Of a stretch of 24,056 nt of DNA, positions 1 to 6,731 are shown piece after piece. The stretch lies in the IMG/VR virus record IMGVR_UViG_3300037483_000257, positions 1 to 24,056 of that record; one strand, given 5' to 3'. Under the pieces are notes generated by a model, which was given only the letters and a program-made list of their open reading frames with translations, searched no databases and was not told the DNA's origin. Position numbers and translations under genes: made by a program. This stretch comes from a virus. Taxonomy: Duplodnaviria > Caudoviricetes. Position 1 is the stretch's first letter. Each line of letters begins with the position of its first letter.

Positions 1-272
1 TGGCCGTCCACCTGGCCGTCCACCTGGCCGCGCACCTGGCCGCGCACCTGGCCGTCCACCTGGCCGCCCACCTGGCCGCGCACCTGGCCGCCCACCTGGC
101 CGCCCACCTGGCCGCGCACCTGGCCGTCCACCTGGCCGCCCACCTGGCCGTCCACCTGGCCGTCCACCTGGCCGTCCACCTGGCCGCCCACCTGGCCGTC
201 CACCTGGCCGCCCACCTGGCCGCCCACCTGGCCGTCCACCTGGCCGCGCACCTGGCCGTACACCTGGCCGCG
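1..272. repeat. 12-bp coding tandem repeat TGGCCGNNCACC, 22 full units plus a partial one
   Basis: Read directly. NN = TC x9, CC x7, CG x5, TA x1. Encodes V-[D/G/R/Y]-G-Q on the minus strand. Confidence 0.98.
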
Positions 273-521
273 ACGGCGCAGAGCAGCCGCCACGATCTCC
301 GGTGCGATGGCCTGGCCGATGACTCCGGCCCACGGTGAGTCCAGCCAGATCACGATCCGGGGTGGGGTGAGCCCCGCTGCCCGGTATGCCTCGGCGAGGC
401 CCTGTTCGGCCATGGCCCGATCTGCGGGGCCGGTTGACAGGCCGATGGCCAGCCACTTGTCGCGGATGGTCGGGAGGATGGCTTCCTGCTCGGGAGTGAG
501 CGAGTTGATTCGAGTGGCCAT
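1..521 (-). CDS. DUF6745-like protein with VxGQ tetrapeptide repeats (partial, runs off the left edge)
   Basis: Not in the ORF track. ATG at 521 overlaps the upstream stop (TGATG). Translates MATRINSLTPEQEAILPTIRDKWLAIGLSTGPADRAMAEQGLAEAYRAAGLTPPRIVIWLDSPWAG...RRRGQVYGQVRGQVDGQ... The LTPEQ..KW..IGLST..ADR..AY..AGL..P..IW.DSP N-terminus followed by VxxQ repeats is the pattern I recognise from DUF6745 proteins. Confidence 0.75.
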   Translation of the reverse strand, partial: MATRINSLTPEQEAILPTIRDKWLAIGLSTGPADRAMAEQGLAEAYRAAGLTPPRIVIWLDSPWAGVIGQAIAPEIVAAALRRRGQVYGQVRGQVDGQVGGQVGGQVDGQVGGQVDGQVDGQVDGQVGGQVDGQVRGQVGGQVGGQVRGQVGGQVDGQVRGQVRGQVDGQVDG

Positions 522-2640: not shown

Positions 2641-2910
2641 GCCGCATCACCCCGTCCCCGGCCGCGCGTCTGCCCCGGATCCACGTCCCGGAGGCGCAGC
2701 CCCGACCCGCATCGGACGACGACATTCGCCGTCCCGCACCAGCTGAGGCACGCTGCCGCGTCGGCCTGGCACGACGCCGGCCTGGACATGCTGGACATCC
2801 GCCCACTGCTCGGCCACGCCCGAGTCTCGACGACACAGCGATATGTCAGGGTCCGGCCCGAGCGGGCCACGAGCGCGATCGAGCAGGCCGCCCGCAGGTT
2901 CGCGGCCTGA
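2641..2910 (+). pseudogene. int: tyrosine integrase remnant (two out-of-frame fragments)
   Basis: One frame gives the linker RITPSPAARLPRIHVPEAQPRPASDDDIRR. Another gives the catalytic C-terminus PHQLRHAAASAWHDAGLDMLDIRPLLGHARVSTTQRY (HxxR, LLGH, Tyr). The N-terminal domain and box I Arg are absent. Confidence 0.85.
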
Positions 2911-2983: not shown

Positions 2984-3337
2984 ATGACCGACTACTTCGC
3001 AGCCAAGGCCCGCAGCGTCTTCACCGCAGCCTCCGGCGACCCGGACCTCAGCGGCCCGCTCGCCGCCTGGGCACGATACGCGCACGGTGTCGGCGACGCA
3101 CGCCGCGGAGTGATCGTCAGCGAGACCGGCGAGATCCTGGCCGAGACGCGCCACCACCCCGCCACGGTCAGCACCCCGGGCGCCACCTACTGCACGTCGG
3201 GCGGCGAGCGCGTGCAGGACCGTGAGCTGGGCCTGGCCATGGCCGCGCTGCAGAGCCGCACCGGCCTCAAGTGCATCCACGTCAAGTACTGGCAGGTCTG
3301 CACCGGGGCGTACCGCTTCATCCCGGCTTCCCGGTGA
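2984..3337 (+). CDS. hypothetical protein, 117 aa
   Basis: Strong RBS (GGAGGACACC-ATG), high-GC3 codon usage, GTGA overlap with the next gene. Confidence 0.8.
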   Translation: MTDYFAAKARSVFTAASGDPDLSGPLAAWARYAHGVGDARRGVIVSETGEILAETRHHPATVSTPGATYCTSGGERVQDRELGLAMAALQSRTGLKCIHVKYWQVCTGAYRFIPASR

Positions 3338-3519
3338 CCACCGAGACCAAGCGGAGGCCCGGCCGCCCCACCGTGGGCGGCCGGGTCACGGTCTCCCTCA
3401 GCCCGGACCGGCTGGCCAGGATCGACGCCGCCGCAGCGCTCGCCCGGATCAGCCGCGCGGAGATGCTCCGCCGGATCATCGACGCGGCCCTCGATGGCCG
3501 CACCATCACCGTGTCCTGA
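3334..3519 (+). CDS. ribbon-helix-helix (CopG-like) DNA-binding protein, 61 aa
   Basis: RRPGRPTVGGRVTVSLSPDRLARIDAAAALARISRAEMLRRIIDAAL shows the alternating beta-strand and SR(S/A)E-type helix motif. Confidence 0.8.
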   Translation: MTTETKRRPGRPTVGGRVTVSLSPDRLARIDAAAALARISRAEMLRRIIDAALDGRTITVS

Positions 3520-3531
3520 CAAAGCAATGGC

Positions 3532-3567
3532 GGCCCCCGGCGGGTGCGCGAACACCCACCGGAGGCC
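3532..3567. terminator. 15-bp stem-loop between the RHH and DUF2510 genes
   Basis: Minus strand GGCCTCCGGTGGGTG-TTCGCG-CACCCGCCGGGGGCC, fully paired when G-U is allowed. Confidence 0.5.
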
Positions 3568-3629
3568 TGGACCGACACGTCGGACGGGCGCGTACCGTGA
3601 CCGGCAGATCCAGTTCCCCGGGAGGGACC

Positions 3630-3905
3630 ATGAGCAGTATCCAGCACCAGAGCACGCCACCCGGCTGGTACCCGCACGGCCCGGTCATGCGCTACTGGGA
3701 CGGCCGGGCCTGGACCGAGCACACCGCGCCCGCCCAGCAGCAAGTGCAGCCCGCCACGGTGGTGCAGGTCGGCCAGCCCCGGTACGTGTCCGGGATCTCC
3801 ACGGGCGGGCACATCGTGCACATCACCCTGTCGGTCGTGACACTCGGCCTGTGGCTGCCGTTCTACGCCCTGTTCTACTGGCTGTCCCGCAAGCGGATCA
3901 CCTGA
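3630..3905 (+). CDS. DUF2510-domain membrane protein, 91 aa
   Basis: PPGWYP...RYWDGRAWTEH signature. C-terminal H..HI.LSVVTLGLWLP hydrophobic hairpin. GGAGGG RBS. Confidence 0.85.
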   Translation: MSSIQHQSTPPGWYPHGPVMRYWDGRAWTEHTAPAQQQVQPATVVQVGQPRYVSGISTGGHIVHITLSVVTLGLWLPFYALFYWLSRKRIT

Positions 3906-3906
3906 C

Positions 3907-3966
3907 CAAAACGCGGCAGCGGCCCCCCGCCTGGCCCACGGGGGGTTGGCCAGAACGGGGGGCCGC
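3907..3966 (-). terminator. late-operon terminator (possibly bidirectional)
   Basis: GCGGCCCCCCG (3919-3929) pairs with CGGGGGGCCGC (3956-3966), with an inner CTGGCC/GGCCAG stem. Lies between convergent genes, with a short T run downstream on the minus strand. Confidence 0.7.
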
Positions 3967-4014
3967 ACCATCCTGCCGCCCCGAGAGGGAACACGACAGG
4001 ACGGACTCAGAGGG

Positions 4015-4128
4015 TCAGAAGGCGGACCCGAACCGTGCCACCGCAGCGGACGGATCATCGACCGCGTCCTCGTCCCGCAGACGCTGCAATGCGGCGTCAA
4101 GCTGCGTCACCGGACAGTCGTCGCCCAT
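4015..4128 (-). CDS. FxSxx-COOH (FxsA-like) RiPP-precursor-like peptide, 37 aa
   Basis: MGDDCPVTQLDAALQRLRDEDAVDDPSAAVARFGSAF-stop. The ATG sits in a TGATG overlap. Terminal F-G-S-A-F follows an L..AL.R helix and an acidic linker. Confidence 0.7.
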   Translation of the reverse strand: MGDDCPVTQLDAALQRLRDEDAVDDPSAAVARFGSAF

Positions 4129-4151
4129 CAGGTGCCGCCCATCAGGTGCCG
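4122..4151. repeat. 14-bp perfect tandem duplication CGCCCATCAGGTGC x2, creating minigene MGGT (4128..4142, minus)
   Basis: Read directly from the sequence. Confidence 0.95.
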
Positions 4152-4387
4152 ACCTTCCGGACGGCCTGGTCGCGGATCGTCGCGCCGCCCAGGTTGTACG
4201 AACGGGTCAACGCGGTCACCGCGTTGATCACGAGCACCAGGACCGCGGCGGCGATGTTCGCGGCTGGGCCTCTCTCCCGCAGCATCGGCACCAGATCAGT
4301 CCCGGCCCACGCGGCCAGCTGCACCACCAGCATCAGCAGCAGGTCACGTGCCCACGTCGGCATCCGATCCAGCAGGCCAGGGTTCAT
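4142..4387 (-). CDS. putative holin, 81 aa, 2 TM
   Basis: ATGA overlap at 4384-4387. Two hydrophobic segments and a basic C-tail, in the lysis cassette. Confidence 0.65.
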   Translation of the reverse strand: MNPGLLDRMPTWARDLLLMLVVQLAAWAGTDLVPMLRERGPAANIAAAVLVLVINAVTALTRSYNLGGATIRDQAVRKVGT

Positions 4388-4638
4388 CGCAGCGAACCTC
4401 CCTTGATCAGGACCAGGCCGAGGACGGCCGTGATCACGGCCGTGAGCACGACGGCGATCCCCGGATAGATCACTTTCTCCAGCCGTGCCACCCGCTCGGT
4501 CAGCACGGCCATCCGCGAGACCACCTGGGACTCGACCTCTTTGATGACGTCGTCGCGGAGCGCCTCGACGGTGCTGGTGAGCCGCTCGACGCCCCGCCAC
4601 ACTTCGCCGAGGGTCACATCCTGCGGTGGGTCGGCCAT
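4384..4638 (-). CDS. lysis-associated membrane protein (coiled coil plus C-terminal TM), 84 aa
   Basis: Heptad-like N-terminus and TM segment IYPGIAVVLTAVITAVLGLVLI, directly after the endolysin. Confidence 0.7.
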   Translation of the reverse strand: MADPPQDVTLGEVWRGVERLTSTVEALRDDVIKEVESQVVSRMAVLTERVARLEKVIYPGIAVVLTAVITAVLGLVLIKGGSLR

Positions 4639-4642
4639 CGGA

Positions 4643-5362
4643 TCAGGGCTGCAGCTGGCGGATCAGCTCAGCGGCGATCTCGGCGGCAGTCGGGCCGGCC
4701 CCGGCCGGCTGGGTGGCCAACGCTGCGAGGGACGCCTTGATGGTCTTGACCTCGGCGGCGAGCGCCGTCACACCGTCGTTGGCGCGCTTGGCGTTCAGGT
4801 AGCCCAGAGCCCAGATCGCGTTGTACGACTGTTCGCCGATCCCGGACCCGAAGGTCTCCTTGTGGGCGCCGATCAGCTCGGCGTCAGCGTCAGTGATGGG
4901 CATGTCGTCCTCCAGAAGAGTGGCCAGTCCCAGGGTGCCGGACCATTCATCGGCCGCCTGCGTGTAGTCGCCGGACAGGTGCACGTGGGTGGCGTGCGGG
5001 TTGGATCCGGTGTAGTCGCGGGTCACCCACCCGTCTTTCCGGGACCAGATCCGGCCCGAATAGATGATGTACCTGAGCGGGATGTAGACGCCGCGTCGGG
5101 CGCGGCGGAGTAGGTACTGGACCACCTGCTCCATGGTCACGGTGGACTTCAGGTCCACGTCGATGTCGATGGCGCGGACCTCGTCCTTAGCGTCCCCATC
5201 CTTGTACTCGGCGTTGCCGGTCCGGTCAGGGTTGTGCCCCGAGGTGGACCCCTGGTGCGCGGTGTTCCCGACTGTCCCGTCGGACGCCCGGTCCCGGTCG
5301 GGGAACACCGCGTTGAACTCGGCGCGGACGGTGGTCAGGCCCTTGGTGAGCACCCAAGCCAT
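4643..5362 (-). CDS. endolysin, Zn-peptidase (M15-like) type
   Basis: FP.RDRASDG..G...H....SGHNPD...VRAIDID...RYIIYSGRIWS...YTGSNPH..HVHLS pattern known from actinophage lysins. GGGAGGAG RBS. Lies before the holin-like genes. Confidence 0.8.
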   Translation of the reverse strand: MAWVLTKGLTTVRAEFNAVFPDRDRASDGTVGNTAHQGSTSGHNPDRTGNAEYKDGDAKDEVRAIDIDVDLKSTVTMEQVVQYLLRRARRGVYIPLRYIIYSGRIWSRKDGWVTRDYTGSNPHATHVHLSGDYTQAADEWSGTLGLATLLEDDMPITDADAELIGAHKETFGSGIGEQSYNAIWALGYLNAKRANDGVTALAAEVKTIKASLAALATQPAGAGPTAAEIAAELIRQLQP

Positions 5363-5379
5363 TCGTTACTCCTCCCGGA

Positions 5380-6195
5380 TCACAGGTGCATCAACGCTTT
5401 CGGTGTCACCATCAGCGTCGCGAACATGCCCGGCACCGAGTGCCAGCCGACGGCGAGCCGCACGGGCGGCGCCCACGCGCCGTACGCCCGGCACGCGTTC
5501 ACCGCCCGTGCCGCGATGTCCGGGCTGCCCGGGTTGTCCCACGAATGGGTGACCTGCGCGAGCCGCGGATCCGACCAGTAGGCGGGCAGCACGTAGTGCC
5601 GCCGGTCAGAGAACCGGGCCGGGTCGTCGGCGGACAGCTGCACCAACGCCTGCCCGCACGCCACATGGTCCGGATGGTTGTCGACGACCGGCGAGTGGCC
5701 CTTGATCCGCACCGGCTGGCCGGGCGCCACCTGGTCGCAGACGGCGAGGATCGCGGCGTAGGCGGCGGCTTTCGTGACGCCGCCGTCGGGCAGGTGCGCC
5801 TCATGGTGGGTGAGCGTCCCGGGCTGGCCGGCGGCCATCGAGGTGAGCGCGGTGGCGTGCTCGGCGGCCCGCGCGGCGACGATCCCGGCCGGGTCCAGCA
5901 CCGGGTACCCCTCGAGCGCTGGGACGTGCTGCACCGCCCACCACGAGCTGACCCCGACCCCGTTCAGCACGTCGATCGCGCCGGTCGCCTCACCATCGGT
6001 CAACAGCAGCACGTGCACGTCCTGACCGGACGCTAGATGCTCGACCAGCGGCACGCCCATCGCGAGCGTCTCATCATCCGGATGCGCGACAACGAACAGG
6101 ACAGGGCCGGTGGCCATCGGCATCATCCTCTCCCCCGGTGGGATACCGATCGAGGCCACAACCGTTGCAGCAGTAAGGAACCTGCGGCGATTCAC
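5380..6195 (-). CDS. PIG-L/LmbE-family N-deacetylase with Tat-like N-terminus
   Basis: Motifs VVAHPDDE, LLTDGE, LPDG and NHPDH. N-terminus MNRRRFLTAA. Alternative start at 6117-6126. Confidence 0.88.
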   Translation of the reverse strand: MNRRRFLTAATVVASIGIPPGERMMPMATGPVLFVVAHPDDETLAMGVPLVEHLASGQDVHVLLLTDGEATGAIDVLNGVGVSSWWAVQHVPALEGYPVLDPAGIVAARAAEHATALTSMAAGQPGTLTHHEAHLPDGGVTKAAAYAAILAVCDQVAPGQPVRIKGHSPVVDNHPDHVACGQALVQLSADDPARFSDRRHYVLPAYWSDPRLAQVTHSWDNPGSPDIAARAVNACRAYGAWAPPVRLAVGWHSVPGMFATLMVTPKALMHL

Positions 6196-6731
6196 TGCGC
6201 GAGGAACCGCGCGAAGATCGAGTTATATACCGTTGACCCGGTGGCCAGGGCCAGGTTCCCGCCGGAGTCCTGCTGCCCGAACACCTCGATGTAGTCGTTC
6301 GCCGCGAAGCTCTGGCAGAACGAAACCTCTGTGGTGGTGTTCCCTACTGGCGCCGGCGCGGTCACCGCGTCCACGACGAACGTCCCGCCGGACGACGACC
6401 CGGCCGCGTTCAGCCGGACCGCGCAGATCCGCCGACCCGTCGCATTCGCAGAGAAACCCAGCTTGCAGACGACCAGATAGAACCCTGCGGTCTTGAACAC
6501 CATCCGCGAGTTGTTGGTCGTCGGGTCATGCATCGTGTCGTTGTCGAAGTTCTCTGTCGCCATCGGGATCAGCGTCATCGTGCCCGTGGTCAGCGACGTC
6601 CCAGCCGTGTTTGTGCACATCGCGGTCGGCGGGCCGAGGAGGAAGTTGATCGCGTCGCGGACCGAGTTCCCCCACGATGCAAGGGTTTTCGCCCCGGCCG
6701 CGATCGTCGCCATTACGGGAATCGTCGCCAT
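6192..6731 (-). CDS. minor tail / receptor-binding protein with C1q/TNF-like beta-sandwich, 179 aa
   Basis: True start MATIPV at 6731. Pattern LASWGNSVRDAINFL...ENFDNDTMHD...NSRMVFKTAGFYLV...NDYIEVF. Confidence 0.75.
   Translation of the reverse strand: MATIPVMATIAAGAKTLASWGNSVRDAINFLLGPPTAMCTNTAGTSLTTGTMTLIPMATENFDNDTMHDPTTNNSRMVFKTAGFYLVVCKLGFSANATGRRICAVRLNAAGSSSGGTFVVDAVTAPAPVGNTTTEVSFCQSFAANDYIEVFGQQDSGGNLALATGSTVYNSIFARFLAQ

Follow-up and report, generated by a model that had tools for sequence, protein, structure and literature searches.

The lysis region and the short gene at its end

The window, by which we mean the whole stretch of 24,056 nucleotides that was analysed, is an entire IMG/VR record, a linear fragment estimated to be 48% complete. 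Its head, tail and lysis genes all lie on the minus strand. The capsid protein has 56% identity to Gordonia phages, and the lysin-like protein (positions 4643 to 5362, minus strand) is 69.7% identical to Pas66, a protein encoded ahead of an annotated holin in the Actinoplanes phage phiAsp2. These two matches point to an actinobacterial host, and a host within Micromonosporaceae is plausible. With the lysin as host query, matches at 32-52% identity were found in 13 of 191 genomes, none of them decisive, and further samples of 56 and 10 genomes gave none. Directly before the lysin gene is a gene for a PIG-L family deacetylase with a TAT-like N-terminus (5380 to 6117, minus strand; Pfam E 1e-14), which is kept in the related phage L163 and whose product possibly modifies cell-surface glycans.

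The lysis cassette continues with an XhlA-like coiled-coil/membrane protein (4384 to 4638, minus strand; a weak Pfam XhlA match, E 0.013, below the cut-off) and with a membrane protein of 81 aa (4142 to 4387, minus strand). A reading made earlier from the sequence only had called the latter a holin; it is holin-like in position and hydrophobicity, and no family matches it, PHROGs included. The same reading had drawn attention to a 37-aa ORF behind these genes. Translation of the minus strand from 4128 to 4015 indeed gives the peptide that it quoted, with a net charge of -5 and a C-terminus of FGSAF followed by the stop; the plus strand of 4015 to 4128 does not encode it. The gene lies behind the lysis genes and on their strand, and its proposed placement for late expression is supported. 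So is the proposed late terminator: about 50 nt downstream of the peptide gene, between it and a convergent gene, is a strong terminator-like hairpin (3915 to 3966) with perfect 11-bp arms (3919-3929 and 3956-3966), a T-rich tail and a free energy of -47 kcal/mol, and one terminator-like site was observed where shuffles gave 0.1. The convergent gene encodes a DUF2510 membrane protein (3630 to 3905, plus strand; Pfam E 4e-10).

The connection between the holin-like gene and the peptide gene is less simple than the single TGATG overlap originally described. The ATG at 4128 does not lie directly on the holin stop (4144-4142), but is reached through a chain of two consecutive TGATG overlaps, with a mini-ORF of 4 codons (4128 to 4142, minus strand) between them. 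This mini-ORF is the product of an exact 14-bp tandem duplication (4122 to 4151), which lies at the holin stop, where similarity to the closest relative breaks off, and which is the sole one of its kind in the window outside the repeat gene at 1-247. We infer that translation of the peptide gene is coupled to that of the holin-like gene via the mini-ORF. No Shine-Dalgarno-like run was seen upstream of 4128, in contrast to the holin and lysin starts.

With 37 codons and no ribosome-binding motif, the ORF might have arisen by chance and be no gene. In codon use, the peptide frame is the best of the six (score 0.27); 11% of 110 windows from true genes fall below this score, which 2.5% of 550 off-frame windows exceed. 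Its GC3 of 0.78 is the lowest among the 15 genes tested (binomial P 0.045, against 0.89). Just 2 of the 429 stop-to-stop frames of at least 25 aa in the window have an F-x-S-x-x C-terminus. Judged from sequence conservation, the reality of the ORF is settled by a core common to 43 proteins. The ORF scores 61 bits (E 3e-18) against the profile of this family, in which the peptide itself is included, and independent homologues, 72-74% identical, have their stop at the matching position. These results bring the chance explanation near to refutation, and we consider it extremely unlikely. A contig from run X1 has letters identical to the window over 3944-6200, and is not independent because it possibly comes from the source sample.

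A peptide family and its relation to FxsA

Among 1.84 billion representatives, phmmer detected a single true homologue of the peptide, 72% identical and likewise 37 aa long; a 687-aa repeat protein (P0003) was a chance match and was dropped. Three rounds of word-indexed search built a family of 43 proteins with lengths of 32-111 aa. Its core consists of a T-Q-L-D-L-A-L-x-R-L helix, an acidic linker and a terminal A-R-F-G-S-A-[FW] before the stop. R16, A31, F33 and S35 are invariant in all 43 members, 41 of which have the F-x-S-x-x C-terminus, and the distance from Q to F is 24 in most. The names of the 42 relatives are all uninformative, and 16 of these relatives are encoded on contigs of at least 5 kb. 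A precomputed PF27839 match, with no score given, is attached to the peptide and to 2 of the 42 others. Weak matches to Pfam FerA, an NCBIfam class III lanthipeptide model and a hydrolase, in 1-3 members each, were rejected. The peptide had no match in PHROGs and no usable match in the ESM Atlas.

With the 43-sequence alignment, AlphaFold2 predicts one helix at residues 9-23, at a mean pLDDT of 74, and an open tail. This predicted amphipathic helix, QLDAALQRLRDE (4060 to 4104, minus strand), has a hydrophobic moment of 0.49 and is conserved, and we regard it as a putative recognition element. The C-terminal core A-R-F-G-S-A-F (4018 to 4038, minus strand) carries the invariant F33 and S35.

The sequence-only reading had likened the peptide to the actinobacterial FxsA precursors, a likeness that was to be scored with TIGR04268. 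In this respect it failed: the peptide does not match TIGR04268 at E <= 10, where the curated cut-off is 28 bits, and the matches in 4 of the 43 family members are weak (best E 0.008). The cut-off is exceeded in 17 of 301 sampled actinobacterial genomes. The canonical set used here was drawn from 301 actinomycete genomes and consists of 23 FxsA peptides; of the 30 loci, 7 were omitted as partial matches in long frames. Against an HMM of these 23 sequences, the peptide scores 10.9 bits, aligns to model positions 19-38 and ranks first among 482 frames of the window. This score is attained by 1 of 2000 shuffles, or by 6 of 2000 when the shuffles retain FGSAF, and true FxsA members, shortened equally and scored in the same way with each left out in turn, range from 3.7 to 37.2. 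When the family and FxsA profiles are compared with hhalign, the probability is 71.6 and the score 26.5, which exceeds the scores of 200 of 200 column shuffles and also of 200 of 200 shuffles in which the core block is fixed. The part of the likeness that holds is thus homology to FxsA precursors over their C-terminal two thirds. The family is probably a distant relative of FxsA, built like it and descended from it.

The family shares with FxsA the L..AL.R helix, the linker, the terminal F-x-S-x-x and an actinobacterial setting. However, it differs from the canonical peptides in several respects. Arg precedes the Phe in 41 of 43 members, but in none of the 23 canonical sequences. The distance from helix to Phe is 23 in our peptide and mostly 21 in canonical FxsA, and the D-L-x-x-x-L that stands before the canonical helix is absent from the peptide, which has the conserved T-Q-L start instead. 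This absence agrees with the earlier remark that the longer leader is missing. However, the shortness is no sign of a decoy made by a phage: at most 14 residues precede the helix in 19 of the 43 members, and because a short N-terminus is so common in the family, it is no evidence of trimming by a phage. Five members (P0014, P0016, P0019, P0032 and P0038) keep a leader-like piece with D-L/V, and may form a bridge between the subfamily and canonical FxsA. Among the TIGR04268 matches themselves, L019, L020, L022, L033 and L041 have F-V-N-D/E or a similar sequence at the C-terminus in place of F-x-S, a variant core type inside the canonical family.

An exchangeable slot and the search for related loci

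Three identical IMG/VR records (L162-L164) represent one related phage, the closest relative of the one studied here. In a blastn comparison, its DNA is 79% identical to the window over 4142-6194. The holin stop is precisely where the similarity ends; it returns over 3341-3538, at a gene for a ribbon-helix-helix (RHH) protein. The stretch between the holin-like gene and the RHH gene (3539 to 4141) is a variable accessory slot, in which the DUF2510 gene is a second passenger. In L163 (as in L164) the slot, at 3247-4252 of that record, has a convergent Ltp-family lipoprotein gene (Pfam Lipoprotein_Ltp E 5e-34) and no peptide. The peptide gene had been taken as the last gene of the lysis cassette, but it is no fixed part of that cassette, since it is absent from this nearest relative, whose holin is 93% identical. 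Because it is missing there, we regard the gene as accessory or optional. Like the Ltp-family gene of L163/L164, it belongs to the accessory genes behind lysis cassettes that share a slot and are exchangeable between close relatives. However, the Ltp and DUF2510 genes oppose the late operon, while the peptide gene has the same orientation as that operon, with probable coupling to the holin-like gene.

Several smaller features lie outside the slot. Upstream of it on the plus strand (2984 to 3519) are a small gene of unassigned function and then the RHH gene; L163 retains the RHH gene, at 88% DNA identity, behind a different gene. At 2737 to 2892 (plus strand), a tyrosine integrase is reduced to its C-terminal end (Pfam E 7e-9), and in the same place L163 has a long integrase-like frame, residues 281-332 of which match the remnant at 38%. 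The phage of the window may no longer be able to integrate. At 3 to 521 (minus strand) is a gene for a protein that runs off the end of the record and has tandem 4-residue GQV[DRG] repeats with a 12-nt period (weak PHROG 36210).

The sequence-only reading had suggested a search for short ORFs ending in FxSxx after the holins of other phages. One X2 contig has the peptide locus, possibly frameshifted, but no such ORF was found in L162-L164, in phiAsp2, or after five of five related lysins (L001-L005). The peptide is also absent from 50 related phage records (50 of 85 loci, with 10 records at least 90% complete), which gave 2 weak partial matches. The X2 contig, an independent contig of a related phage, spans 3997-4381 at a depth of about 3, and has 46 substitutions relative to the window. 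It has a single copy of the 14-mer and, because of this, a direct TGATG overlap with the holin stop. In codons 30-31 it also carries an extra base at each of two positions, 4038 and 4040; were these 1-base insertions real, the reading frame would change immediately ahead of the core. If they are not errors, the insertions speak against the core being under strong selection in this group of phages. The X2 locus could accordingly be a pseudogene, a variant that lacks the core, or simply an error.

These comparisons bear on the possibility that the peptide is an accessory of lysis with no tie to Fxs systems, for example a holin regulator or a membrane-active helix, whose likeness to FxsA would be convergence. 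Its position and coupling, its amphipathic helix and its failure against TIGR04268 would all suit such a role. However, a lysis accessory would be missing beside a 93% identical holin, after all five related lysins and in phiAsp2; moreover, the peptide is acidic and not cationic, and its homology to the FxsA profile persists with the core block fixed. We judge this explanation to be very unlikely.

For other members of the family we searched cellular and viral collections. The statement that the window holds no maturase was borne out, in that the 48%-complete record has no match to TIGR04269 (FxsB). This is a difference from the canonical FxsA loci, 14 of 23 of which have a CxxxCxxC gene within 1.5 kb, whereas no FxsB adjoins the phage peptide gene. 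Samples of 401, 301, 301, 56, 58, 7 and 176 actinobacterial genomes, which overlap, contained no true cellular match to the family (the positive control had E 3e-18), and none of 25 probed genomes had an FxsB above the cut-off. Weak partial matches in 9 of 401 and 1 of 301 genomes were rejected, as they lie within long frames and were rescored at 10-20 bits. Also rejected were 14 plasmid records from a tblastn search with the relative P0013 (all E >= 2), one GenBank phage record from a tblastn search with the peptide (E 3), and 10 matches to a pattern in JGI metagenomes, all of which lie within long unrelated ORFs. The JGI metagenome collection does not hold every member of the family, because it did not return the known member P0004.

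In IMG/VR, DNA patterns gave 0, 0, 1 and 1 matches, both of them due to chance within unrelated genes, and an alignment scan gave 183 candidates, of which none was confirmed. Patterns that fit 35 of the 43 members at the protein level matched no other IMG/VR contig, and 9 of the 11 JGI members on contigs of at least 5 kb would fit the patterns used on IMG/VR. This is a weak hint that most members of the family are cellular and lie outside the viral set, and it is weak because the collections are incomplete.

Given this hint, the peptide gene might be a passenger: a host precursor gene that was acquired in one piece with the terminator and the DUF2510 gene, and that is useless and decaying. Its absence from the closest relative and the 50 related records, the possible X2 frameshift, the low GC3, the duplication at the peptide start and the lack of a match in any other IMG/VR contig are what one would expect of such a gene. 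On the other hand, whether the 14-mer is present once (X2) or twice, TGATG overlap joins the start of the peptide exactly to the holin stop. The gene brought no host DNA along at its flanks, and the copy in the window has all invariant residues intact. We find it doubtful that the gene is a mere passenger.

Possible effects on a host Fxs system

We take MscB to be an FxsB. According to the accessible text of PMC11002830, MscB cross-links Phe C4 to Ser C-beta at positions i and i+2, and FxsB is listed among cyclophane formers in the available part of PMC10114670. In the portions available of two further sources, the processed Fxs peptide is predicted by Kaur et al. to be a toxin or signal that amplifies ternary conflict systems (PMC7159879), and the Fxs peptide, described as uncharacterised, is predicted by Li et al. 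to be an antiviral molecule or a diffusible alert tied to TIR-ParA apoptosis (bioRxiv 10.64898/2026.10.19.760177). Our peptide is of the type that these sources link to predicted apoptosis or alarm functions in the VMAP ternary systems (PMC7159879) and the TIR-ParA FxsC/FxsT systems (bioRxiv 10.64898/2026.10.19.760177). However, the record lacks their enzymes and sensors, and the loci described in the same accessible text are cellular. The supplements of PMC7159879 contain no match to the family motifs. A literature search that left most subscription papers outside found no phage-borne FxsA-like peptide.

Our preferred explanation, to which we assign a probability of roughly 45%, is that the peptide is an accessory, late-made look-alike that jams an Fxs system of the host. 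In this explanation, the peptide gene would be translated late through its coupling to the holin-like gene. The helix would be read by a host radical SAM enzyme of the FxsB type or by another Fxs component, and the free F-G-S-A-F end would sit where the core peptide of the host normally does. Cross-linked or not, the peptide would then compete with the host Fxs peptide, and this competition would dampen the predicted suicide or alarm response of TIR/ParA/STAND type. Late synthesis would suit a peptide that acts once lysis occurs or later, on nearby cells or compartments, better than an early decoy inside the cell.

Jamming is favoured because the family of 43 has a fixed spacing from helix to Phe with an invariant F and S, because its homology to canonical FxsA exceeds that of shuffled controls, and because host-interaction genes occupy the slot (DUF2510 here, the Ltp-family lipoprotein in the relative). 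The host, moreover, is actinobacterial, as is the group in which Fxs loci occur. That a phage should carry a counter-measure is plausible in view of Lanthiphage, an anti-phage RiPP of actinobacteria (bioRxiv 10.1101/2024.06.26.600839), although Lanthiphage has a different chemistry, is host-encoded, and has no phage-borne precursor mentioned in its abstract. Finally, jamming fits the available text of the two sources that predict the Fxs peptide to be antiviral or a diffusible alarm (PMC7159879; bioRxiv 10.64898/2026.10.19.760177).

It is also necessary to consider what weakens this explanation. We infer the target Fxs system rather than see it, because no cellular locus of the subfamily was found, and hence no cognate FxsB, FxsC or FxsT. 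Late timing is unusual for counter-defence. The peptide misses TIGR04268 and is optional among related phages, the X2 insertions, if real, would remove the core, and the lowest GC3 together with a fresh duplication at the start fits relaxed selection. Lastly, that Fxs systems act in immunity is itself just a prediction, in the accessible text of bioRxiv 10.64898/2026.10.19.760177.

An intact F-x-S core, as opposed to a dead mimic, would also allow the reverse effect, in which host FxsB matures the peptide and the phage uses the product as an agonist or hijacked signal. The product could bring about host death at lysis, act on competing phages in cells nearby as a poison or a deterrent, or signal from phage to phage. 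Co-expression with the lysis genes and a slot shared with a family of superinfection-exclusion type would suit such uses, and arbitrium, in the available part of PMC12360287, is a precedent for phage peptide signals. However, the record has no visible receptor or export signal, alerting neighbours is usually costly to a phage, and this explanation likewise has no known host locus. We therefore regard it as quite unlikely.

Jamming can also be given a more specific form. The ARFGSA[FW] family as a whole could be dedicated, largely phage- or element-borne look-alikes of Fxs peptides, and the copy in the window could spill out with the progeny at lysis and block a predicted diffusible Fxs alarm to the neighbour cells of a multicellular actinobacterium. 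This form is unlikely; if true, it would mean that a phage times its counter-defence to lysis and directs it at a peptide alarm passed between cells.

For FxsAB peptides and their FxsC/FxsT partners, the chemistry is known and the immune role just predicted. An enzyme-less look-alike in a phage would be a direct handle on that role, as a single peptide of 37 residues can be taken into assays of modification, binding and phage spread. Should the gene prove to be a passenger only, what is left is a gain in annotation. New here are the coupling of such a gene to a lysis operon, its visible swap with an Ltp-family gene, and a distinct, conserved subfamily of FxsA-type precursors that TIGR04268 misses and that is usable for mining cognate maturases.
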